Numbered from the stretch's first letter, positions 1 through 24,099 are shown. The stretch is DNA of 39,402 nucleotides from a virus (IMGVR_UViG_2541047754_000004); one strand, 5' to 3'. Program-made: numbers and translations. Notes: a model not told the origin generated them from the letters alone.

Positions 1-555
1 TCATTTATCTCCCACCGGAAACCTCTTATACAAAGTCGATATGCCAACATCATAGATGATCGCTACCTTCAGGCGAGGAACTCCTGATGCAATTAATCGT
101 CCGGCCTGTGCCCATTGTTCTGGTGTAAGTTTGGGACGTCGTCCACCAATTCGTCCCTGTGCGCGAGCAGCTTCCAGTCCTGCTTTTGTTCGTTCAACAA
201 TCAGTTCACGTTCCATTTCAGCCAGGGCCCCCATCACATGAAAGAAAAAGCGCCCCATTGGGGTACTGGTATCAATTGAATCCGTCAGACTACGAAAGTT
301 GATGCCTCGTTCGCGCAACTCCTCCACCAGCACGACAAGATGCCGCATACTGCGCCCCAGTCGGTCCAGTTTCCAGACCACCAGCGTGTCACCTGCCGAT
401 AATGTCCTGAGCAGCTTTTTCAGTCCTGGTCTGTCGGACTTTGTACCGCTTATCTTGTCTTCAAAAATCAGCTCACATCCTGCACAGTTCAGCGCATTAC
501 GTTGTAGATCGGTATTCTGGTCATTTGTTGATACACGTACATAGCCAATAAGCAT
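1..555 (-). CDS. pin: Serine recombinase, DNA invertase of the Pin/Gin/Hin/Cin family
   Basis: 184 aa; N-terminal MLIGYVRVSTNDQ with catalytic Ser, GDTLVVWKLDRLGRS motif and C-terminal HTH; near-identical in length and sequence to e14 Pin as recalled; ATG at 553-555, stop at 1-3. Confidence 0.92.
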   Translation of the reverse strand: MLIGYVRVSTNDQNTDLQRNALNCAGCELIFEDKISGTKSDRPGLKKLLRTLSAGDTLVVWKLDRLGRSMRHLVVLVEELRERGINFRSLTDSIDTSTPMGRFFFHVMGALAEMERELIVERTKAGLEAARAQGRIGGRRPKLTPEQWAQAGRLIASGVPRLKVAIIYDVGISTLYKRFPVGDK

Positions 556-2705: not shown

Positions 2706-3385
2706 CAGATTAATACTCCCCATGCCCCTACATCAAAACCACTGATGAATTCGTTATCCATATCAAAACCAAAAAATTTAGAGCCTTCCGATGGAGTTTC
2801 CACCGAAGGTGTTTCAATGCCCCCCGCCCATACCCCGGCGGCTTTTACTGTTAGATACCCCTGTTTAATTGCCGCAATTAACTCACGCGATACATCTGAA
2901 ATATCAGTATCAGGAAAGACCCAGACCGATATCGTCATGTCCTGGTTATCGACTATCTGCATTCGCAGCCCGGATCCTGCTGTTGCCGCGTCAAGAATTG
3001 CCGGAAGCGAATCATTCCGTCCGTCCCAGTTATTAATCGCAATCTTCGCTTTAAGAATGACACGATAAGTTTCATCGCTGAGATACATGTATCCTGAATC
3101 AGGATCGTATGGTCCCTGCCATACCCCCTGATCATATCCAAGCCCGTCGGTATCCCAGCTGAAATAGACACCTGAGATAGGCTGGCTGACAACACGGCTA
3201 CGTCCGATCCACAATCCAAGAATGTCAAGTTGCACACCAACCGCAGAGTCAATATCAAATGCAGTAATCAGCCCTCTGGTGGCAGCCGCAACATCAATAA
3301 GTGGCCGGGTCATCAGATCAACATGCGCAAGAAATTTAGGTTTGGTGGCGTGGTAGTTCGTGATTAGTTCGGTGTATTTGCTCAT
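2705..3385 (-). CDS. Tail or baseplate protein (position of P2 gpI)
   Basis: 226 aa; sits between baseplate J-like gene and tail fibre; overlapping stop/start with neighbours. Confidence 0.65.
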
Positions 3386-4581
3386 GACTCCACCGTTATA
3401 ACGATATTTTCCGGGGTACAGGACGTAGATTCGTTGTATCTGATATCAATGTTTGATGACGACAAAGCCCCCGGGGATTTCCCAATCGTCAGTTCCTGAA
3501 TATCGTAATAGCGTGCATTCCCGCCACTCACCACGCCAAGATTCGCCGGTGAGTAAATGCGACTTAAAAGGACCGAATCACCAATCATCAGACTATTGAT
3601 ATAGTCGGAAATAGCCTGCTGGATCTGCTGCCCTATCTGTGAGGTATAACCCGTAAAAACTTTTAATTTAATCCGGGCGTAAACAGGCACATCACTGGAA
3701 CGCGAGAATTTGATTACATGGGGATTGCCGTATTTATCCGGAACCGTAACGGATGTTGTACCGTGAGTGGCTGTCCCCTGGCCTTTATTTCCTCTGATAG
3801 CCTGAGCAATATCCGTCACATCACCGCCATCCACAATTACAGCAACAGAGTGTGGCGGTAACCCGTTACCGTCCTCCGAACCAGTATCGTTTTCATAGAG
3901 TTTGTGGCGGGTTACACCGGTAACATTAGAAACAGCACCATCCAGTGCTTCAAATGGGGTTATTGATGGCAACGCAACACTTTGCGACTGGCGGATACGT
4001 AACTCCGCATCAGTTTCTGCTGGAGTGCCTACAGTAGCTGCAGCAGGATTGGTTACCGAAACCCAGCCACGGGTTGGCGTATTAATTTCAGTGATAGTTC
4101 CAGCCAGCGCCGCCACTGCACCACTGACAGAACATTTTGCGGTCACCATCACTGTACCATCCACGCCGACCACCACTGAAGCAGGCAAACGCCATATCAC
4201 ATTATTACTGTCTTTCACGCTGCCATTAATGATGGTTGTTCCGGCAGTTCCTGTAAGAAGCAAATCAACCGTAGAATTCGTCGCGCCTTTACGTGAAATA
4301 CCATTTATTTTCACGTTACTGGTCAGTGCAGCCCCATAGCCGGTTGCCGGTGAAAAACAGTTGTAGACAGTTATCGCCATATTATTGGCATCATGAATCG
4401 CCAGCGCCATCAGAGCCACCATCTGGCCGTCTTTGCTGTCCGGTTCGAGGTAGGCATCACTGCCATAAATCTGCTGAAAATAGCTAATCAGGGTGCTGAG
4501 TATCGTCTGATAATCAGGCGCACTGATCCCCTCCGCGGTTACCTTTGCAGATAAACCGAGAGAATCAAGGTTCAGAGCCAT
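3382..4581 (-). CDS. Baseplate J-like protein
   Basis: 399 aa; position and size match the baseplate J family in a V-W-J-I-H order. Confidence 0.8.
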   Translation of the reverse strand: MALNLDSLGLSAKVTAEGISAPDYQTILSTLISYFQQIYGSDAYLEPDSKDGQMVALMALAIHDANNMAITVYNCFSPATGYGAALTSNVKINGISRKGATNSTVDLLLTGTAGTTIINGSVKDSNNVIWRLPASVVVGVDGTVMVTAKCSVSGAVAALAGTITEINTPTRGWVSVTNPAAATVGTPAETDAELRIRQSQSVALPSITPFEALDGAVSNVTGVTRHKLYENDTGSEDGNGLPPHSVAVIVDGGDVTDIAQAIRGNKGQGTATHGTTSVTVPDKYGNPHVIKFSRSSDVPVYARIKLKVFTGYTSQIGQQIQQAISDYINSLMIGDSVLLSRIYSPANLGVVSGGNARYYDIQELTIGKSPGALSSSNIDIRYNESTSCTPENIVITVES

Positions 4582-4934
4582 TACGCCTCCGATGTAACAG
4601 TCGTTATTCCATAGAGAGTGTCGATTTCAGCGGAAAACATGACACGTCGGGTCGTGGTATCCACCGTCGTATTGAAAGAGAGGATTGATTTAACGCCCTG
4701 CGTTTCCAGAATGCGTTTTCTGATCGCTAGGTTGTAAGTTTCCGGTTTTTGCCTGCCCAGCACAGACTGGATCCACGGAGTCCCTTCGGTAGTGTCGAGA
4801 AACCATTGCCCATACCACAATTCGAATCGCGTTTTCACAGCCTGCGCCACGGCCTCAGGCGAGTTAATCAGCCAGGTGTCATCACCGCTGCCAAAGGTGT
4901 AATCGCCATCGGCGTCTTCACGTCTGTATCGCAT
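4581..4934 (-). CDS. Baseplate protein (W/gp25-like position)
   Basis: 117 aa; PEAVAQ..R....GEWFLD-like core; translationally coupled to neighbours. Confidence 0.65.
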   Translation of the reverse strand: MRYRREDADGDYTFGSGDDTWLINSPEAVAQAVKTRFELWYGQWFLDTTEGTPWIQSVLGRQKPETYNLAIRKRILETQGVKSILSFNTTVDTTTRRVMFSAEIDTLYGITTVTSEA

Positions 4935-5686
4935 CAGTTTACCCCGTCGGTACTGCTTCCACCGCGCTGAACACCGCCATGAGTGTGCGTATCATCGATT
5001 GGCTTGCCGTTAGCCTTAACGCTCCCCAAGAACTCAACAGCACCAGTGATTTTTGAAGCCACGCCAGAAACAACAGACCCCACCATGCCCCCCATCCAGG
5101 TTAACAGGCCATGAATGGTTACTTTCTCAGAAAAATCAGCCAGAGGGGCGACCACATCAAGCCCCCCGGGAGCGACAATTTTAATTTTCCTGGTATCAGG
5201 ATTAAGCTCAAAATAGGTGCTGCCGTCGTCACTACGCAACTGTGTGGCACTGGTATTAATACCGCTAATCTTCCTTGCCTGCGACTGGGGACCGACAATA
5301 CAAAACGAATCCGATAAATCATGCATTCTGTCATCAACAGGCTCCTGTATCCCGCCGTTCTGCCACCAGAAATCAATACAACGATCGGCAAAAACGACAA
5401 GACACTCATCCCCGGCTTTTATCGGAAAAGTCAACGTACAGCCTCCGCCGCGCGGGAATACCACTGGCACATCCACCAGCAATGGGTAATTTTTGGTAAT
5501 GCGGCTGCCGTCATTATCCTTTTCAACCGAACGGATAGCAGGCTGCACAACCGCCGTCACCGCATCAGGATCGAATGACTGAATAATGCCAGGCAAGGCG
5601 ACACGGATCTGGTTTTTAATGGTTTCCCGCTCGGATTTGAATGTTTCAGCAAGGTCGCCGCTGCGGGTCTGGTCGGATACTGCCAT
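4934..5686 (-). CDS. Baseplate central spike (gpV/gp138-like)
   Basis: 250 aa; Gly-rich C-terminus with THTHGG motif typical of spike tips; position upstream of W-like gene. Confidence 0.75.
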   Translation of the reverse strand: MAVSDQTRSGDLAETFKSERETIKNQIRVALPGIIQSFDPDAVTAVVQPAIRSVEKDNDGSRITKNYPLLVDVPVVFPRGGGCTLTFPIKAGDECLVVFADRCIDFWWQNGGIQEPVDDRMHDLSDSFCIVGPQSQARKISGINTSATQLRSDDGSTYFELNPDTRKIKIVAPGGLDVVAPLADFSEKVTIHGLLTWMGGMVGSVVSGVASKITGAVEFLGSVKANGKPIDDTHTHGGVQRGGSSTDGVN

Positions 5687-5827
5687 TTGATAGGCTCCAA
5701 TAATTTAAAACACTTGCTTTGATATTTTTGTTAAGAGCAACCAAACTATATGTTCGGATAGTGGTTGGTTTTATTAACCGTTTTCCGCTTATCAATCACA
5801 GCAATTAAATCTTTACAAGGATTAGAT

Positions 5828-6049
5828 ATGAGCACTGACTCGCAAACAACCGATATTCAGGTCAAATGCCTGCATTGTGGAGCATGGTTTCCTTCAGCTA
5901 TATGGATTGGGGATCGTGAGTCCCTTCAGTCTGGAGTTTTGTTTGGGAACAAGCAACAATGCCCGAAATGTCATAAAATGACTGATTGTAATAAAGAAAA
6001 TTTCAAAGCTAGATTTAAGGATGGCGGATTTATAGGTACGAAAGTCTAA
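5828..6049 (+). CDS. Hypothetical zinc-ribbon protein (cargo gene)
   Basis: About 73 aa from ATG at 5828 (AGGA upstream); CxxC...CxxC; opposite strand to the tail operon; AT-rich. Confidence 0.5.
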   Translation: MSTDSQTTDIQVKCLHCGAWFPSAIWIGDRESLQSGVLFGNKQQCPKCHKMTDCNKENFKARFKDGGFIGTKV

Positions 6050-6061
6050 ATAACATCCCCC

Positions 6062-6092
6062 AAAAAAGCCTCACGGCGATATGAGGCTTTTT
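6062..6092. terminator. Bidirectional intrinsic terminator
   Basis: A-run, GCCTCA stem, loop, TGAGGC stem, T-run; lies between convergent genes ending at 6049 and 6112. Confidence 0.6.
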
Positions 6093-6111
6093 CAATGAAT
6101 ACTAAAAATGT

Positions 6112-6459
6112 TCAATCAGCAATTTTCTTACAAGGGTAAGATCCAATGATTTTCGGAGCATCCATGCTGTTTTGCAGCAGTTGGACGTTCAGGAAGGCTT
6201 TTCCGTTACGCTTCACAAACTCAAAGCCGTAATTGTTGCCATCGCGGGAAGGCATCAGGCCCATGTCGGTTTTAACGTTGTCCCAGTCATCTTTCTGACC
6301 AAGAAACTTAATTTTCTGAGATGTTACCTGTTCGCCGTTGATTTTCGTCCACCCGTTATCAGATGCATGAAGTCGGTATCCCCCGCATTGCAAATCAGCG
6401 AAAGCCGATGAGCAGGAAAACAGTAACGAAATTGTCAGAACTAACTTCATACGCTTCAT
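6112..6459 (-). CDS. Small secreted protein or lipoprotein (cargo gene)
   Basis: About 115 aa from MKRMKLVLTISLLFSCSSAFA signal peptide (possible lipobox LFSC or AxA cleavage); two Cys in mature part; ATGA overlap with upstream hub gene. Confidence 0.55.
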   Translation of the reverse strand: MKRMKLVLTISLLFSCSSAFADLQCGGYRLHASDNGWTKINGEQVTSQKIKFLGQKDDWDNVKTDMGLMPSRDGNNYGFEFVKRNGKAFLNVQLLQNSMDAPKIIGSYPCKKIAD

Positions 6460-7523
6460 GAATAAATCCTTTGCTGCGCTGAGGACGAAAGTAAATCCGC
6501 CGCGCCACGCGCTTCGCACATCATGTCCATGTACCACGCCTGGCCCCTTGTGTCACCAGTGTACATAATCCCGCGCACAATATAAACGCCATCCGTTGCG
6601 ATGCTGGCAGGCTGCGATGTGGTGCCGCTGAGCGTGATATTTCCGTCCGTGTTCTGGTCGGTGATCTGACCACCAGCCATCGCAATATCGTTGTTCGACA
6701 ACGCGGTACGATAGACGGAAGCCTGATCCAGCTGAATGAGCCCGTTAACCCGGATGTTCGGATTAATAAGCGCGCGGACGTTTACGCCGTTACCGATAGT
6801 CTGCTGCGGCATTCCAATAAGCCCGGTAGCGCTGTTGAGCACAATCGCTTCGTGAACATATTCGTTATTCGCCACCATCTGGCGCTGACCGTCCACGAAT
6901 TGCCATGTTGCGCCACATTGTCCGGCTACGTTATCCATTAGATGCCGCGTCATGCCAAAGAGTACCCGCCCCCGGGGGAATACAGTAGCAGGCATTTCAG
7001 GCGTCAGGCCTTCGGTCGCGCCTTTGGCTTCGAAGTCTTTCATCAGCGCACGGTTCACATCAGCGACCGTGTAACCGGCAGCCAGCGTCTGTGAGGTTAT
7101 ACTGGTAGCAAAAGCCAGATCAGTATCTGCTGCCTGAATCAGGACGTAGGTATCAACCGGACTGTCTTTTCCTGTGACCGAGTAGCGAATTTCACCGCTG
7201 AAAATCAGTCCGTAGTTGCGGCCATCACTCTGGCCCACGTCCGCCGCGTCAACTTCCCGCACTGTCCCGACGTCGCTTGCCGACACCTCCGGCGCGATAC
7301 CGTCGTAACCCGCAATCAGACGCACTTTCGAAAACTCCTGTCCGGTGATTCGGTTCACAGTATCTGCCGAGAGGTTATAAATTTTGATAGTCCCTACCCG
7401 GGATGCACTGCTGATGTTGAACCAGTCGATCGTAAAGGTAACTTTAAAATCACTTAGCTCAATTCCCTGACCGTTCCCGTCCACAAGCTGCAGCTCGAAA
7501 TGTCTCATCCAGTTCTGTGACAT
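6456..7523 (-). CDS. Baseplate hub protein (P2 gpD / late control D-like position)
   Basis: 355 aa; follows tape measure and two small tail genes as in P2-type tails. Confidence 0.7.
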   Translation of the reverse strand: MSQNWMRHFELQLVDGNGQGIELSDFKVTFTIDWFNISSASRVGTIKIYNLSADTVNRITGQEFSKVRLIAGYDGIAPEVSASDVGTVREVDAADVGQSDGRNYGLIFSGEIRYSVTGKDSPVDTYVLIQAADTDLAFATSITSQTLAAGYTVADVNRALMKDFEAKGATEGLTPEMPATVFPRGRVLFGMTRHLMDNVAGQCGATWQFVDGQRQMVANNEYVHEAIVLNSATGLIGMPQQTIGNGVNVRALINPNIRVNGLIQLDQASVYRTALSNNDIAMAGGQITDQNTDGNITLSGTTSQPASIATDGVYIVRGIMYTGDTRGQAWYMDMMCEARGAADLLSSSAQQRIYS

Positions 7524-7525
7524 GC

Positions 7526-7828
7526 TTACTCCGTTGATACCAGTAAATGGCTGCGACCGCCCAGGTCAGTTTTTGTGGGGTAATCCTGTGTGTTGTCATC
7601 ACAGACCACCACCAGCTTAAAACCAAGCCCCATACAGGCGTACTGCGCCAGCAGGTCGGCACCAGTGACGAGAGGAATACCGGAGATTACCGGCTCCCCT
7701 CTGTCGTTCTGCAGGTCCATAATCCAGTACAGATCGCGCCATATGATGCTAATCCGCCAGGTAACACCACCTAAGACGATGCTGAACTGCTGGTTGTCCG
7801 CTGTCAGCGGAATTTCCTGAATTGTCAT
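7526..7828 (-). CDS. Tail protein (gpX-like position)
   Basis: 100 aa ORF tightly packed in tail operon. Confidence 0.55.
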   Translation of the reverse strand: MTIQEIPLTADNQQFSIVLGGVTWRISIIWRDLYWIMDLQNDRGEPVISGIPLVTGADLLAQYACMGLGFKLVVVCDDNTQDYPTKTDLGGRSHLLVSTE

Positions 7829-8415
7829 TAGCCGCCCCCCAGTAATGACGCCACGTTACCCGTGATGCTTTTCAGCAGTGAAGTATCTGGAGGCTTTGTG
7901 GTTTTGTTGCCGCTATTCTGTACCGCCGACGTGCTGGCCCCTTCCTTCATGTTGGTTTTATCCGCGACGGTAATCTGCTGTGTCCGGGAGATAAGGACCT
8001 CCCTCAGGGTGAGGACGGCGGACAGGACGTTTTCGGTTGTCTTGTCCGTCGTCACTTCCAGCGCCCGGATCAACATGTTGCTGTACAGTCGTTTACCGGT
8101 TACCACATCGAAGGGGATACGGCTTTCCTGCAGATCCAGTAGCTCCTGATACGTCTGCTGAGGACTCAGGCCGAGCAGGCTGGTAGCCGTCAGATTACTG
8201 GCAAAATCCAGCAATGCGCCGCCACCGGCGAAACCAACCTCCATCACCACTTCTGACGGTTTTTTATAGGCATGATCAGCGACAGCGGCCCCAACCTCTA
8301 CCGGATGCTCTGTTATTTCAAGCATATCTGTATGCTTCTCTGAAATAACAACACTGGGAACAATCATTCCTATTTTTCTGCTCTGCTGATGAAAAAGTGT
8401 AGAGAGAATATCCAC
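7828..8415 (-). CDS. Tail protein (gpU-like position)
   Basis: 195 aa; start overlaps tape measure stop. Confidence 0.55.
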   Translation of the reverse strand: MDILSTLFHQQSRKIGMIVPSVVISEKHTDMLEITEHPVEVGAAVADHAYKKPSEVVMEVGFAGGGALLDFASNLTATSLLGLSPQQTYQELLDLQESRIPFDVVTGKRLYSNMLIRALEVTTDKTTENVLSAVLTLREVLISRTQQITVADKTNMKEGASTSAVQNSGNKTTKPPDTSLLKSITGNVASLLGGG

Positions 8416-10403
8416 TAACCCACCCTCACCTGATTACTTCGCATGACCTGAGCATTTGCAGACTGTTGCCGACGTGCAACCTCATTACCGACAGCGTGCG
8501 GATCTCCGCCACCGTAAATGTGGTAGGTATTTTGCTGGTTAACCTCTGTCACTTTGCCACTAATTCCCGCCACGGCAGCCTTATTAATCAGCTCTCGAGA
8601 ATAGATATTTCTTCCATTCTCATGCTGGATAATGCTGCTCATCAATGCTGACATGGTTTGCGGATCGCTCATATTCAGGGCAGCCCGGGGATCCACTCCC
8701 AGTCGTTGCGATACAGCCCTGATATACGCAGTTGTGTTGTTATTATCAGACGCAGGTGCCCAGGTAGAGATAATTTTCTCCACACTGTTTATTCCCCGTC
8801 CGGCGTACAGCATTAACTGACGAGCAAGAGCCCGTAATCCATCAAAGGCAGTTTCAAATCTGGCAAATCGCCCGCCCGGGCGTTCAAGAGAAGCCCCTGC
8901 CTGACCAGCAAAATTAAGGTTTCCCGGATTGTTATTCCGTTCTCCTCGTTTCGTAGCCTGTGCATGTTGTTCCGGCTCATCATCACCAAACCAGCCGCGT
9001 ACCGTCCGGCCCACACTGCGGGGATCAAATCCCCAGTGCTCTTTAATCCAGTCGGCAGTACTGTTAGCGCTGTCTGTAACCATCGGCATCGCTGACGGAT
9101 TTTCGCTGCCCTGATTAAGTATCTGTTTGCCGATGCTGACGGCATCAGCCCAGCGGCCATCTTTGATAGCGTTGAGCAGGTCGGCGATCATGTTCAGCAT
9201 TTTGCTGAATTCGCCCATCTGGTCGATGAAGTTGCTGAAATCCCACTTCAGGGACCATGATTTGGGGTCAATATTGAGCAGTTTCGCCAGCGCTTTCACC
9301 AGGTCGTTAACGGTCGTTTTAAGGTCACGAACCATCTTCAGCGCGGCATCAACCTCCGGTTTCCACTTGCCCCAGTCAATCAGGCTGTCGCCGCCTTCCT
9401 TCCAGGTCTGATAGTCCTCCCACAGGAGGGCAATCCCCGCCGCCAGCGCGGTAATGAGGCCAATCGGCGACATCCAGAACGTACTGTTCAGAATGCGCAG
9501 CGCAATCGTCAGTGCGCCAAACAGCGAGATCAACTCCCGCGTTTGCTTATCCAGCGATTGCCACCAGGTGATGAGGCCTGATGTCCCCTCAATCAGTCTG
9601 AAGAACAGCCGCCCGATAATATCCCCGAGCGCCAGAATGCCTTTTATGGCTTTCGTCAGGGTCTGCTCGATACGCGGGAAGTTGTCCAGGATATGGCGGC
9701 GCAGTGTGTCCAGCGAACCCGCAAGCCCACCCGCAAGATTAGAGCCGATTTTGTCACGGGCCATGCCTGCCATCGCGCCAAACTCACGCAGGGAGGTCAT
9801 AAATTTGTTGGAGCTTCTGGCCGCCTCGTCAGCATTGAAGCCGATAGCTTTCGCCATTGCGCTGTACTGCCCGGAGAAGCCACCCACACCGCGACGCATA
9901 GCCAACAGGGTATTTTCGTCAATGCCCAGCATCTGCGCATACTGGTTAGCACGGTAATACGGCATGTCGCTGAGCTTCTGGCCTACCCCTGTAAAAATAG
10001 CGGCCATGTCACGCATGTTACCGCTGGCATCCCGTGTCTGTACCCCCAGACGATTCAGAAATCCCTCCGCCCCGGGATTGTTACGAATAAACCGGGAGAG
10101 GCTTTCCAGAGAAGATCGCGCAGCGTCCACGCTGCCGCCAACCTGCGAAACCGCATAGCCAATAGACTGAATTCCCTGGACTGTCGCGCCGGTGCGCTGT
10201 GACGCCCAGTAAAGATTATCCAGGCCGGAGGCGATCTTAGCCGTGAAGGCCACCACGGACAGCGCAGCTCCTTCAACAGCCAGCCCCATTTTGATGACAT
10301 TTGCAGTTGTACCGGCGAGGACAGAACCGAACTTTTTCGCTCCTGCATCATCCACACTGAAGCCAAGCGAGACGAGGAAATCTTTAATAGTTTCAGCGTT
10401 CAT
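8415..10403 (-). CDS. Tail tape measure protein
   Basis: About 662 aa; alpha-helical, hydrophobic central segments; directly downstream of frameshifted chaperone; start taken at MNAETIK (GGAGAGAGG upstream), ORF track allows 10424. Confidence 0.85.
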   Translation of the reverse strand: MNAETIKDFLVSLGFSVDDAGAKKFGSVLAGTTANVIKMGLAVEGAALSVVAFTAKIASGLDNLYWASQRTGATVQGIQSIGYAVSQVGGSVDAARSSLESLSRFIRNNPGAEGFLNRLGVQTRDASGNMRDMAAIFTGVGQKLSDMPYYRANQYAQMLGIDENTLLAMRRGVGGFSGQYSAMAKAIGFNADEAARSSNKFMTSLREFGAMAGMARDKIGSNLAGGLAGSLDTLRRHILDNFPRIEQTLTKAIKGILALGDIIGRLFFRLIEGTSGLITWWQSLDKQTRELISLFGALTIALRILNSTFWMSPIGLITALAAGIALLWEDYQTWKEGGDSLIDWGKWKPEVDAALKMVRDLKTTVNDLVKALAKLLNIDPKSWSLKWDFSNFIDQMGEFSKMLNMIADLLNAIKDGRWADAVSIGKQILNQGSENPSAMPMVTDSANSTADWIKEHWGFDPRSVGRTVRGWFGDDEPEQHAQATKRGERNNNPGNLNFAGQAGASLERPGGRFARFETAFDGLRALARQLMLYAGRGINSVEKIISTWAPASDNNNTTAYIRAVSQRLGVDPRAALNMSDPQTMSALMSSIIQHENGRNIYSRELINKAAVAGISGKVTEVNQQNTYHIYGGGDPHAVGNEVARRQQSANAQVMRSNQVRVG

Positions 10404-10638
10404 TATCCTCTCTCCATTTCTCAATGCGTCGCTGGTTATCCGCTTTTACCGCCAGATGGTCATTCAAGAGAGCAATGTCATACAAATCGACAGAGCCATC
10501 TTTAAGTGCTGTATAAGGAATTAACCCGGCGTCAACCGGATTGAGAAGGTAGGACAGCCCGTCCGGCAGGCTGTTAAACGTCAGCCCTGTTGCAGGCTCT
10601 GCGTCGTGCTGGTAAGGGGTGTAGGCAAAAAATTTCCC
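10393..10638 (-). other. Programmed -1 frameshift site and extension ORF giving the chaperone fusion (gpGT/E'-like)
   Basis: Minus-strand run GGGAAATTTTTTG contains heptamers G_GGA_AAT, A_AAT_TTT and T_TTT_TTG in the zero frame; the -1 frame then stays open about 80 codons to a TGA overlapping the tape measure start. Confidence 0.65.
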
Positions 10639-22919: not shown

Positions 22920-23261
22920 TTACTCCTTAGAGCCACCAAACTTGTTACCGATTACTCGCATTGCAGCCCCACGAATAGCATCCACACCGATCAGCCCAAC
23001 ACCACCACCAATGGCAACAGAAAGCGATTTAGGCCATCCAACATACTCAAGAGCGGATGCAAAGGTCAGCGTCAGAGCACCACAGAGCAAAATCTCAAGC
23101 GTTTTTCGTTTCCAGCCGCCACCACCGCCAAAATAGGCAATGCGCAAGCCAGCCATAACAATTGACATAACCACTGCGCCCAACGGCGTATCTCCACGCC
23201 ACCAACTTTGTAAGAGTTCCAGTAAGTCAGGCCAGGAATGAGGAGCATTGTGCATTTTCAT
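22920..23261 (-). CDS. Holin with Met-Lys-Met dual-start motif
   Basis: About 113 aa from MKMHNAPH; GGAGG 8 nt upstream; hydrophobic segments; immediately upstream of endolysin. Confidence 0.7.
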   Translation of the reverse strand: MKMHNAPHSWPDLLELLQSWWRGDTPLGAVVMSIVMAGLRIAYFGGGGGWKRKTLEILLCGALTLTFASALEYVGWPKSLSVAIGGGVGLIGVDAIRGAAMRVIGNKFGGSKE

Positions 23262-23664
23262 ACTTCCCACCTCCGCCATTACGGGGTGTTGTTGAAAGGC
23301 GGGCCCTGCGTATACGCCCGTAGGATTGGGGTATGAACCGTCCTTCGGTGGGCCCTGAATACAAAAAAAGTTCGCCATAGCGAACCTTGTTAAATTTGTT
23401 AAAAAAGGATGTTATTTAACATAATGTACGTTATAGTAACCACACGATCACCGCTCGCAATAGATTTGCGATGAAAGGCCTATTTAATCAACTTAAGTGG
23501 TCCAGAATGGCGAAATTCGAGTGAATAAAAGGTGCATAAAAAAGGGCAAAAACTGCATAGCGTTTTTTCGCGACGAAAACCCTGTTTTATTAACTTTTAC
23601 TGAGAATAGAGCATTAAAAAAGCCCCAATGATTTGGAGCTCTTCGTTGAGGTCAGAAATTCAAC

Positions 23665-24099
23665 TCATACCAGCGTAGCGCAGTTTTTGCGTAGCGCACT
23701 AATACTTTTTTCATCCCTTTGAATTTCGACCTCAGGATCCATCTGAAGGCTCACACCCAGCATGCAGAGACACCCCTCAATGAATCCCTCAGCTACCTGC
23801 AACTGCTGGCGGATAAATCCTTCAGAACAGCGACGCCGCCGCCCTATCTCACGTTTGCTTAACCCGTAGACGTAGTACAGCATAATGACGTCCAGTTCCT
23901 CAGGCTTACGGACCTGCTGCAGTCGACAGACGCAAGCATCGATAATCAGGCCATCGTCGTCACAGCAACTCAGCCTGCCAGGCGAGCTGCTGACTACCAG
24001 CCCTTTAAATCCCGCCGCTATTGGAGCCCAGCTCACTGTGGTGTTGCTATTGGCAGCCCAGCCACCCCAGCGCTCTAAAACCTGTTGAATATTACGCAT
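23665..24099 (-). CDS. Late-gene antiterminator, Q-like (small QuuD / phage 82 type)
   Basis: 144 aa; MRNIQQVLERWGGWAAN...IAAGFKGL...CCDDD motif matches small Q-family proteins as recalled; sits upstream of lysis cassette. Confidence 0.85.
   Translation of the reverse strand: MRNIQQVLERWGGWAANSNTTVSWAPIAAGFKGLVVSSSPGRLSCCDDDGLIIDACVCRLQQVRKPEELDVIMLYYVYGLSKREIGRRRRCSEGFIRQQLQVAEGFIEGCLCMLGVSLQMDPEVEIQRDEKSISALRKNCATLV

Follow-up and report, generated by a model that had tools for sequence, protein, structure and literature searches.

We describe here the junction between the baseplate hub and spike genes of a virus sequence of 39,402 nucleotides (nt), IMGVR_UViG_2541047754_000004, which was analyzed over its whole length and is referred to below as the window. 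Within the baseplate operon the hub and spike genes are separated by two small genes of deviating base composition, one on the strand of the tail genes encoding an exported protein and the other on the opposite strand encoding a predicted C4 zinc ribbon, and the two converge upon a hairpin (Table 1). We consider it highly probable that the junction follows the order hub, exported barrel, cargo slot, terminator, and spike, and that it constitutes an accessory island with two layers.

Table 1. Features of the hub-spike junction and of other genes in the window (positions in nt, counted from its first base; aa, amino acids)
Feature	Position	Strand	Remarks
Baseplate hub	6456-7523	minus	upstream anchor of the accessory region; phrog_196 E 1.2e-88; PF22759 E217_GP41 E 4e-5
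ATGA overlap of hub TGA stop and secreted-protein ATG	6456-6459	minus	plus strand reads TCAT
Exported protein gene	6112-6459	minus	115 aa (mature 94 aa); ATG 6459 to TAA 6112
Signal-peptide coding part	6397-6459	minus	aa 1-21, MKRMKLVLTISLLFSCSSAFA; predicted signal peptidase I cut after AFA
Predicted bidirectional intrinsic-terminator hairpin	6062-6092	both	A6-GCCTCA-(8 nt loop)-TGAGGC-T5; between the convergent genes
Predicted C4 zinc-ribbon protein gene	5828-6049	plus	73 aa; ATG 5828 to TAA 6049
AT-rich intergenic region	5687-5827		31% G+C; between the divergent spike and zinc-ribbon starts
Membrane-puncturing spike (Gp138_N and Apex)	4934-5686	minus	downstream anchor of the accessory region; PF18352 E 6e-44; Apex motif PF18946
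Tape-measure protein	8415-10424	minus	
Dit-like tube initiator	7828-8415	minus	PF21821
Pam3_gp18-type plug	7526-7828	minus	
Sheath initiator	4581-4934	minus	
Baseplate J	3382-4581	minus	
Antiterminator Q	23665-24099	minus	head of the late operon; PF06530 Phage_antitermQ E 8.7e-51
Holin	22920-23378	minus	upstream of the tail genes, same strand
Pin/Gin-type serine invertase	1-555		Resolvase E 1e-51 and HTH_7

A sequence-only reading of the window had placed a spike and a hub gene at the two sides of an AT-rich stretch, and both assignments are confirmed by profile matches. The G+C content of the stretch is 0.31-0.448 against 0.52-0.54 in the flanking genes, and taken individually it is 0.54 in the hub, 0.515 in the spike, 0.448 in the secreted-protein gene, and 0.405 in the zinc-ribbon gene (0.365 at third codon positions, GC3), with values of 0.31 and 0.37 in the two intergenic stretches of the junction. 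The same reading had called a minus-strand signal-peptide open reading frame (ORF) joined to the hub gene through an ATGA overlap, a plus-strand ORF with a CxxC...CxxC pattern, and a bidirectional terminator between them, and each of these is recovered where it had been placed, the first ORF with a Sec-type leader, and the hairpin with a significant fold on both strands. The outer limits that it had set, 5765-6537, do enclose both ORFs, although they are the limits of the longest ORFs, and the true starts lie at 5828 and 6459. The hub and secreted-protein genes are probably translationally coupled, and an AAGGA motif is situated 7 nt upstream of the secreted-protein start.

The hairpin at 6062-6092 folds with -13.8 kcal/mol on the plus strand and -21.4 kcal/mol on the minus strand (z -3.8 and -3.7), and none of 200 shuffled sequences was as good. 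It travels with the zinc-ribbon gene in all six loci in which we find that gene, and we take it to be a bidirectional intrinsic terminator, as predicted from its sequence and fold. A simple consensus terminator scanner did not report it, and Rfam gave sub-threshold matches only, to STnc230 (6055-6142, minus strand; 26 bits where the gathering score is 50, E 0.33) and to BTnc231 (5994-6093, plus strand; E 0.034, far below the gathering score), both of which most likely reflect the terminator alone.

The secreted-protein gene occupies a stereotyped position. Using a profile of its family, 80 loci were recovered from IMG/VR (344 hits), and the hub, secreted protein, and spike were mapped in each. 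The gene adjoins the hub in all 80 viral contigs, wherever the contig reaches, with the hub ending 0-30 nt before the secreted-protein start wherever a locus is long enough to show it; the distance to the downstream spike varies, and the spike is present there in all of the loci that reach it. The same order is observed in nine loci whose family members form a branch with just 39% identity to the window protein (two of these loci, L103 and L104, have one extra gene between the hub and the secreted-protein gene), and in the named phages SEN34, YP3, Mulock, and ST11-VIM1phi8.3. The gene is kept even where the slot is empty, as at two loci (L036 and L076) in which 60 and 61 nt, respectively, separate it from the spike, and where it is followed by a terminator and then by the spike gene.

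Other contractile-tail modules have the hub and spike without this gene. In Pam3 (whose record annotates the tube initiator, hub, spike, and wedge), Providencia phage PSTCR3, and Acinetobacter phage Ab105-1phi the spike follows directly after the hub, in keeping with the earlier view that the DNA between the two is accessory, and the secreted-protein gene is also absent from Hafnia phage yong1 and from EKP1, whose hubs are 77% and 48% identical to that of the window and which have other cargo there instead. Among 61 non-redundant loci, the pairwise divergences of the tape-measure C-terminus, Dit, plug, hub, and spike correlate with each other with Spearman coefficients of 0.64-0.92, including 0.79 for hub and spike across the intervening secreted-protein gene, whereas the divergence of the secreted protein correlates with that of any structural neighbor at only 0.28-0.52. 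A recombination breakpoint lies within the gene itself, as the zinc-ribbon cassette and the final ~30 codons of the secreted-protein gene are common to strain NRZ96606 and the window, beyond which the two diverge. Because the gene is absent from these five phages and its divergence is independent of that of the hub and spike, we propose that it is an old and fixed accessory gene that entered the hub-spike junction long ago in an enterobacterial lineage, and that its product is probably no part of the virion.

The features of the secreted protein are consistent with export. Its N-terminus is MKRMKLVLTISLLFSCSSAFA followed by DLQCGG, and the leader divides into MKRMK, LVLTISLLF, and SCSSAFA, with the mature part beginning at the Asp. 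In a rule-based test of 151 full-length family members, a basic N-terminus with a hydrophobic core is found in 142, and a small-x-small site just before the mature part likewise in 142. A strict lipobox ([LVI][ASTVI][GAS]C) is present in only two members and a relaxed one in 11, and the LFSC of the window allele is a relaxed match only, which we regard as incidental. We therefore regard the window protein as probably Sec-exported and cut by signal peptidase I, and, because small-x-small sites are so prevalent and strict lipoboxes so rare, the family as apparently soluble and periplasmic rather than lipoprotein. Thus, of the earlier description as a secreted protein or lipoprotein, the Sec-type signal peptide stands and the lipoprotein is rejected at the level of the family, with a Serratia fusion variant as the exception. 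In these Serratia prophages (L107 6001-6879) the gene after the hub encodes a 292-residue lipoprotein (LSGC) with a 190-residue domain in front of the barrel; under the Lol rule, its Thr at position +2 would direct it to the outer membrane, and the 190-residue domain, which matches nothing in Pfam or NCBIfam, is confined to such fusions. Another Serratia tail module (L110 4001-4330) has a distant family member of 109 residues between the plug and the presumed hub.

The two cysteines noted earlier in the mature part are conserved, with exactly two present there in 139 of the 151 members, and C25 and C110 are invariant even across members that are 25-40% identical. AlphaFold2, run with a 50-sequence alignment, gives a model with eight strands, a mean pLDDT (predicted local distance difference test) of 91.5, and a pTM (predicted template modeling score) of 0.82, and we predict that the mature 94-residue part is a periplasmic 8-stranded beta-barrel. 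A disulfide between C25 and C110 that closes the barrel is plausible, since the two cysteines are on its first and last predicted strands. In fold comparisons, generic barrels such as haemoglobin linker chains and avidins outscore the lysozyme inhibitors, and the best match in BFVD is a Serratia phage 'lipoprotein', which is insignificant (E 0.17).

The protein matches phrog_3443 over its full length (E 8.7e-56, residues 1-115 against profile positions 1-115), for which PHROGs gives the function as unknown, and a 64% identical homologue is named by PGAP as a 'STY1065/STY2022 family phage-derived protein'. There are 384 homologue clusters at 90% identity, all in Enterobacterales and all unnamed or labelled "secreted protein", and for this reason the ORF is more than a chance one. 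The family is nonetheless small, as an exhaustive HMMER search of 1.84 billion representatives recovers only 63 clusters at 50% identity; two further hits, P0171 and P0185, belong to long proteins of repeat or fibronectin type and are probably spurious, and the search otherwise returned the family only. In SEN34 the RefSeq record annotates the family member gp20 (L002 3390-3731) with 77 residues, and the full ORF has 113 residues with a TTG start and a signal peptide. We found no literature on STY1065 or STY2022, or relevant to this region of SEN34.

Between the secreted-protein gene and the spike lies a slot with varied contents, computed to span 4-2068 nt (the 4-nt value, at L045, is perhaps an alignment artefact) and verified as empty at ~60 nt in L036 and L076. 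Filled slots have a G+C content of 0.36-0.45, and clustering of the ORFs within them yields more than 20 distinct cassettes, over half of which have no annotation, with cargo on either strand. Ten loci (L046-L048, L061, L071, L075, L080, L082, L084, and L086) carry PD-Lambda-1 (PADLOC E 1e-84 for a representative), a protein of 409-411 residues in which a transmembrane segment at the N-terminus is accompanied by a coiled coil and a T5orf172/MUG113 domain. A YafO-toxin pair is present at five loci and a SocA/Panacea pair at one. Secreted or membrane proteins other than the barrel also recur in the junction, including a secreted tRNA_anti-like OB protein at seven loci, DUF4282 membrane proteins at three, a DUF2335 membrane protein at one, a weakly PycTM-like membrane protein at one, and unannotated signal-peptide proteins at several. 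The commonest two-gene cargo, at 22 loci, is an unannotated cassette in which cluster C0 is accompanied by C1 or C2. The slot thus has the conserved flanks, the mutually exclusive cassettes, and the known defense systems of a prophage defense or accessory hotspot, and we interpret it as a probable recombination hotspot at which cargo cassettes are exchanged. The sequence-only reading had regarded such a site as typical for exclusion or host-interaction genes, and the PD-Lambda-1 and toxin-antitoxin modules in the slots of relatives agree with it. Our literature searches turned up no account of this hotspot.

One of these cassettes has been encountered in another context. STY2020 and STY2021 are S. 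Typhi-specific markers for the polymerase chain reaction, with published primers and amplicons of 429 bp and 732 bp (PMC5126401). All four primers map in the slot of L079 (3937-5096) with 0-2 mismatches and reproduce the published amplicon sizes, and for that reason the STY2021/STY2020 markers are the C1/C0 cassette beside a STY2022 homologue. The cassette itself has no Pfam or PADLOC match. In Burkholderia phage Magia (L092 3457-3828), an unrelated signal-peptide ORF of 123 residues lies between hub and spike on the opposite strand, and this junction is therefore used for cargo directed to the envelope in a distant lineage too.

The spike-side border of the slot is also conserved. In 57 of 69 unique slots, a hairpin resembling a terminator (AAACCCGCC-ACCC-GGCGGGTTT and then a T-run) is situated 38-45 nt upstream of the spike gene, irrespective of the cargo and even where the slot is empty. 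It is absent from the window (5687-5827) and from the zinc-ribbon loci, which instead have the GCCTCA hairpin beside the secreted-protein gene. Because a spike-proximal terminator can serve only to stop transcription that lacks modification by Q, its prevalence suggests that the secreted-protein gene, the cargo, or both are also transcribed in the lysogen.

In the window the slot is occupied by the zinc-ribbon gene, which is present in six of about 88 loci (L004, L005, L009-L011, and L077) and is always opposite to the tail genes. Its product has the pairs C14-x2-C17 and C45-x2-C48, and is 100% identical in five of these loci and 89% identical in L077, where it stands beside a different secreted-protein allele. 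The sequence-only reading had treated the two genes of the junction as a single insert, and this does not hold, as the secreted-protein gene is fixed (80 of 80 loci, including those with empty slots) and the zinc-ribbon gene is found in six; a joint two-gene insert was rejected because the zinc-ribbon gene occurs beside two secreted-protein alleles (100% and 68% identical) and in unrelated high-G+C contigs without either. An AAGGA Shine-Dalgarno sequence (5817-5821) lies 6 nt upstream of the ATG, and the comparison with the L077 copy reveals 28 synonymous and 8 non-synonymous codon differences. Homologues form only three clusters in 5.8 billion proteins, and two of these are 67% identical; across the four homologues C14, C17, C45, C48, and C54 and the motifs SAIWIGDR and KENFKARF-DGG are invariant. 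The two at 67% identity (L007 317-532 and L008 86-301) are in metagenomic contigs of 60-64% G+C, where the gene is a low-G+C island (0.42-0.52) among CsrA, DUF1654, and LuxR-type genes and is again convergent with its neighbor; from the CsrA and DUF1654 neighbors these high-G+C elements may be Pseudomonas-like.

We conclude that the zinc-ribbon ORF is in all likelihood a real gene under purifying selection, because of the ratio of codon differences and because of the 67% identical homologues in such G+C-rich contigs. The AlphaFold2 model is all-beta and zinc-ribbon-like (pLDDT 76.8), and we predict a C4 zinc ribbon, while in Pfam there were sub-threshold matches only (E ~0.03) and no named zinc-ribbon family. 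It is conceivable that the ORF arose by chance or belongs to a small RNA with a terminator in an AT-rich spacer, and there are observations in this direction, in that PGAP calls no coding sequence there in either complete RefSeq genome that carries it (L004 4139-4357 and L005 4139-4357), no Pfam family exceeds the threshold, and the sub-threshold Rfam matches BTnc231 (E 0.034) and STnc230 (E 0.33) fall on the terminator. But four cysteines and long motifs that remain invariant at 67% identity in contigs of 60-64% G+C, the excess of synonymous changes, a Shine-Dalgarno sequence at the right spacing together with a terminator of its own, and the beta model all argue otherwise, and we hold this explanation to be the least credible of those considered here. 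We propose instead that the zinc-ribbon gene specifies an accessory factor, expressed independently, that acts in defense, counter-defense, or regulation. Its promoter presumably lies within 5687-5827; a sigma-70 consensus scan found no site for the gene, and alignment of this region with that upstream of the L077 copy reveals conserved blocks and no clear hexamers.

These observations bear on a common type of prophage. The window is a SEN34-like (Brunovirus-like) lambdoid temperate myovirus prophage of E. coli, the late genes of which form a single Q-antiterminated minus-strand operon. Identity of the region is 94% with Escherichia phages vB_EcoM-689R2, 606R2, and 611R5, and 82% with SEN34, a Salmonella phage of the genus Brunovirus that has been described as combining myovirus morphology with a lambdoid genome (PMC5261728). 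Of 5426 complete E. coli genomes, 117 contain 80% or more of the window's first 25 kb, and SEN34-like prophages are also found in Salmonella, Klebsiella, Serratia, and Yersinia. By Pfam and PHROGs profile matches the contractile-tail module is complete and entirely on the minus strand, and in a syntenic prophage (L095) PGAP annotates a Q antiterminator, a lambda-type holin, a GH24 endolysin, terminase, head, and tail on one strand. At 1-2723 the Pin invertase adjoins short ORFs on both strands, whose counterparts in L095 are annotated as tail fibre and fibre-assembly genes, and this suggests an invertible host-range segment; by analogy with Gin of phage Mu, an invertase beside fibre genes would imply the use of alternative receptors. 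A degraded prophage in E. coli 873.10 (L005 4767-5303) has its hub reduced to the last ~66 codons and fused to a truncated bet gene, and retains the secreted-protein gene, the zinc-ribbon gene, and the downstream baseplate genes with 99.7% identity to the window.

The two-layer organization can be summarized as follows. The first layer is the predicted Sec-exported barrel, its gene fixed beside the hub gene and often coupled to it, and because of this position and coupling the secreted protein would be made at least together with the tail-tip proteins. The second layer is the slot, whose cassettes are swapped and which here holds an opposite-strand zinc-ribbon gene with its own ribosome-binding site. 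The zinc-ribbon and secreted-protein genes share one predicted bidirectional terminator, which at 6062-6092 may serve as an insulator, stopping the cargo transcript before it can extend antisense through the tail genes, and likewise may keep transcription that is not Q-modified out of the spike gene while Q-modified late transcription passes. Lambdoid Q-modified RNA polymerase reads through intrinsic terminators, and late expression of the spike, wedge, and fibre genes past the hairpin would be expected for this reason.

What the barrel does is a matter for a more guarded proposal. We suggest tentatively that it is an entry-blocking factor of a superinfection-exclusion or immunity-like kind, which would act in the periplasm of the lysogen or of the infected cell. 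We are led to this guess because the barrel is an exported phage protein without a virion role, because its gene is tied to tail parts that enter the periplasm, because the Serratia lineage tethers the barrel as a lipoprotein, and because the junction repeatedly gathers envelope proteins and defense genes. Its likely target would be the penetrating tail tip of related contractile phages and not a particular surface receptor; since the Pin invertase implies alternative receptors, it would make more sense to target a conserved step of penetration than any one of them. Taking the statement as a whole, with both the two-layer accessory island and the entry-blocking barrel, we lean towards it, with appreciable reservation.

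Several known systems are informative for comparison. A moron, as reportedly defined by Hendrix and co-workers around 2000, is an extra gene of deviating composition that related genomes lack at the same site, with its own promoter and terminator and expression from the prophage, and those of lambdoid phages include lambda lom and bor, whose products are often envelope-bound, while gp15 of HK97 blocks DNA entry. As in those phages, there are accessory genes of odd composition here among the essential genes of a Q-antiterminated late operon, bounded by an intrinsic terminator and present in only some relatives. The zinc-ribbon gene is an extra gene of deviating composition (0.405 against flanks of 0.52-0.54), the secreted-protein gene (0.448) is absent from distant modules, and a terminator is present. 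However, a convincing sigma-70 promoter was found for neither gene, and the secreted-protein gene is fixed across the lineage and coupled to the hub rather than being an autonomous unit. A second comparison is with the antiviral hotspots of P2-like prophages and P4-like satellites (Rousset et al. 2022, PMC9122126). These similarly have conserved flanking phage genes around a short site with many mutually exclusive AT-rich cassettes, some of which are validated defense systems (here PD-Lambda-1), although the present hotspot is in a SEN34-like lambdoid myovirus, at the hub-spike junction, with cargo on either strand and a terminator at the spike-side border (57/69).

For the barrel the working model is Spackle (Sp) of phage T4, a small exported phage protein with a cleavable signal peptide that mediates exclusion in the periplasm by acting on the incoming tail tip, and any such activity here is suggested by analogy. 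Whereas Spackle is helical and the product of an early gene, an all-beta barrel is predicted for the secreted protein, whose gene is coupled to a late one, and there is no relationship of sequence or fold between the two proteins. Llp of T5 and Cor of phi80 and N15 are receptor-blocking lipoproteins that mask FhuA and protect the infected cell or lysogen as well as the progeny. These too are envelope proteins encoded beside tail genes, but 149 of the 151 members of the secreted-protein family are without a strict lipobox, and the switching of fibres by Pin argues against a single receptor as target. The lysozyme inhibitors MliC, PliC, and PhiA differ in that there is no hidden Markov model match to them, and their inhibitory loop motifs, as generally described, are not evident in the alignment of the secreted protein. 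The barrel is therefore no member of the MliC/PliC, Llp/Cor, or Spackle groups, in part by comparison with general descriptions of them, and the analogies are functional only. The small zinc-finger regulators Ogr of P2 and Com of Mu, which are cytoplasmic proteins of ~60-75 residues with a CxxC...CxxC pattern, resemble the 73-residue cargo protein in size, cytoplasmic nature, and cysteine pattern, although there is no above-threshold Pfam match to Ogr_Delta and the gene is in a variable slot and not in a regulatory module.

A number of observations weigh against an entry-blocking island, or at least temper it. The promoter of the zinc-ribbon gene was not identified, either by the consensus scan or by the L077 comparison. 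For the secreted-protein gene the consensus scan gave no promoter, and a relaxed scan only an 8/12 site at -127, which is explicable by coding constraint because it lies within the conserved hub motif YIVRGIMYTGD; classical exclusion would need expression in the lysogen, whereas the gene is coupled to a late one. The divergence of the secreted protein is not tracked by that of its own tape-measure C-terminus (0.28-0.30), and the tape-measure protein of the window has no Pfam SLT match at E 0.001. Neither the secreted nor the zinc-ribbon protein has a significant match in Pfam, NCBIfam (in whose release 20.0 no model matches the secreted protein), or PADLOC (nothing at E 0.1 in PADLOC-DB 2.0), their only PHROGs match is phrog_3443, and sequence searches of the PDB were empty. 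The 80 loci were chosen for carrying the secreted-protein gene, and they cannot measure how often it is absent. Finally, there are chromosomal homologues outside prophages in Erwiniaceae (L112 4001-4327 and L114 5001-5339), and because of these the family may have a housekeeping role in the periplasm. One such homologue is situated between yciY and yciI-tonB, another, in Erwinia psidii, has tsx, yoaK, and a LysR-type regulator gene as neighbors, and an Erwiniaceae homologue is found in 166 Mixta calida contigs; these copies suggest either domestication or a cellular origin of the family.

The Erwiniaceae homologues are also what could be expected of a host-fitness or conversion factor, which like Bor and Lom of lambda would serve serum resistance, adhesion, or protection from envelope stress rather than act against other phages, as they suggest a cell-autonomous periplasmic role. 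A small envelope protein encoded in a late operon, with a terminator after its gene even in the absence of cargo, is moreover the classical moron layout. Yet the family is nearly confined to one position in one tail module, its members are soluble and not surface-exposed (two strict lipoboxes in 151), and a promoter for lysogenic expression was not found, so that we consider this explanation unlikely. A more specific version of the exclusion idea is that the protein inhibits a peptidoglycan hydrolase in the periplasm in the way of MliC, PliC, or PhiA, directed against the muralytic domain of an incoming tape-measure protein or against the phage's own lysin. The size and form of the protein, a periplasmic 8-stranded barrel of ~95 residues with two conserved cysteines, would suit such an inhibitor, and the tape-measure proteins of close relatives are lytic transglycosylases according to PGAP, while distant ones carry PF01464 SLT. 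But at E 0.1 the protein matches neither MliC (PF09864) nor any other Pfam family, the inhibitors are outscored in fold comparisons by haemoglobin linker chains, avidins, and further generic barrels, and there is no co-variation with the tape-measure C-terminus. Indeed, a search for a partner by co-variation with the tape-measure C-terminus, hub, or spike gave no elevated correlation, this being a weak test as the sequences are short. Moreover, yong1, EKP1, and Ab105-1phi have SLT or lysozyme-like tape-measure proteins without having the gene, and the window has the gene and a tape-measure protein without an SLT match. We judge a hydrolase inhibitor to be distinctly improbable.

More improbable still is that the protein has a role in baseplate structure or assembly and that its hydrophobic N-terminus has been misread. 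That the gene adjoins the hub in every locus carrying it, is coupled to the hub in the window, and is strongly conserved in its C-terminal half could be read in this way, and the sequence-only reading itself had allowed that the proteins might turn out to be virion components conserved in all related baseplate modules. They are not so conserved, given that yong1, with its 77% identical hub, lacks the secreted-protein gene, as do Pam3, PSTCR3, and Ab105-1phi, and a structural protein was rejected for this reason and because divergence of the gene is decoupled from that of all its structural neighbors. The canonical signal peptide with its small-x-small site, the occurrence of exactly two mature cysteines in 139 of 151 members, and the existence of chromosomal homologues outside prophages also stand against it. 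We thus return to the two-layer island with a barrel that may block entry as the explanation that we prefer.

A bolder extension can be put forward, and we give it a slender chance of being correct: the STY1065/STY2022 barrel would found an undescribed class of periplasmic anti-entry proteins, and the zinc-ribbon cargo would be a new single-gene defense or counter-defense factor. Such anti-entry proteins may bind the penetrating tip, either spike or tape-measure end, of related contractile-tail phages, and the placement of the barrel gene between hub and spike is reminiscent of the type VI immunity genes that lie beside vgrG-effector genes. The chromosomal copies in Erwiniaceae may then be domesticated anti-entry proteins, and the zinc-ribbon factor could be shared between enterobacterial prophages and high-G+C elements.

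The organization of this junction extends the picture of morons and hotspots to another phage lineage, and does so without overturning current ideas or being conceptually surprising. That RefSeq misses a conserved small zinc-ribbon gene represents an annotation gap. As SEN34-like prophages are common in E. coli, the hub-spike hotspot is a practical place to mine for defense and exclusion genes, and the exported barrel, being compact, confidently modelled, and representative of a small family with a stereotyped address, is a good candidate for studies of how temperate contractile phages manipulate the periplasm.

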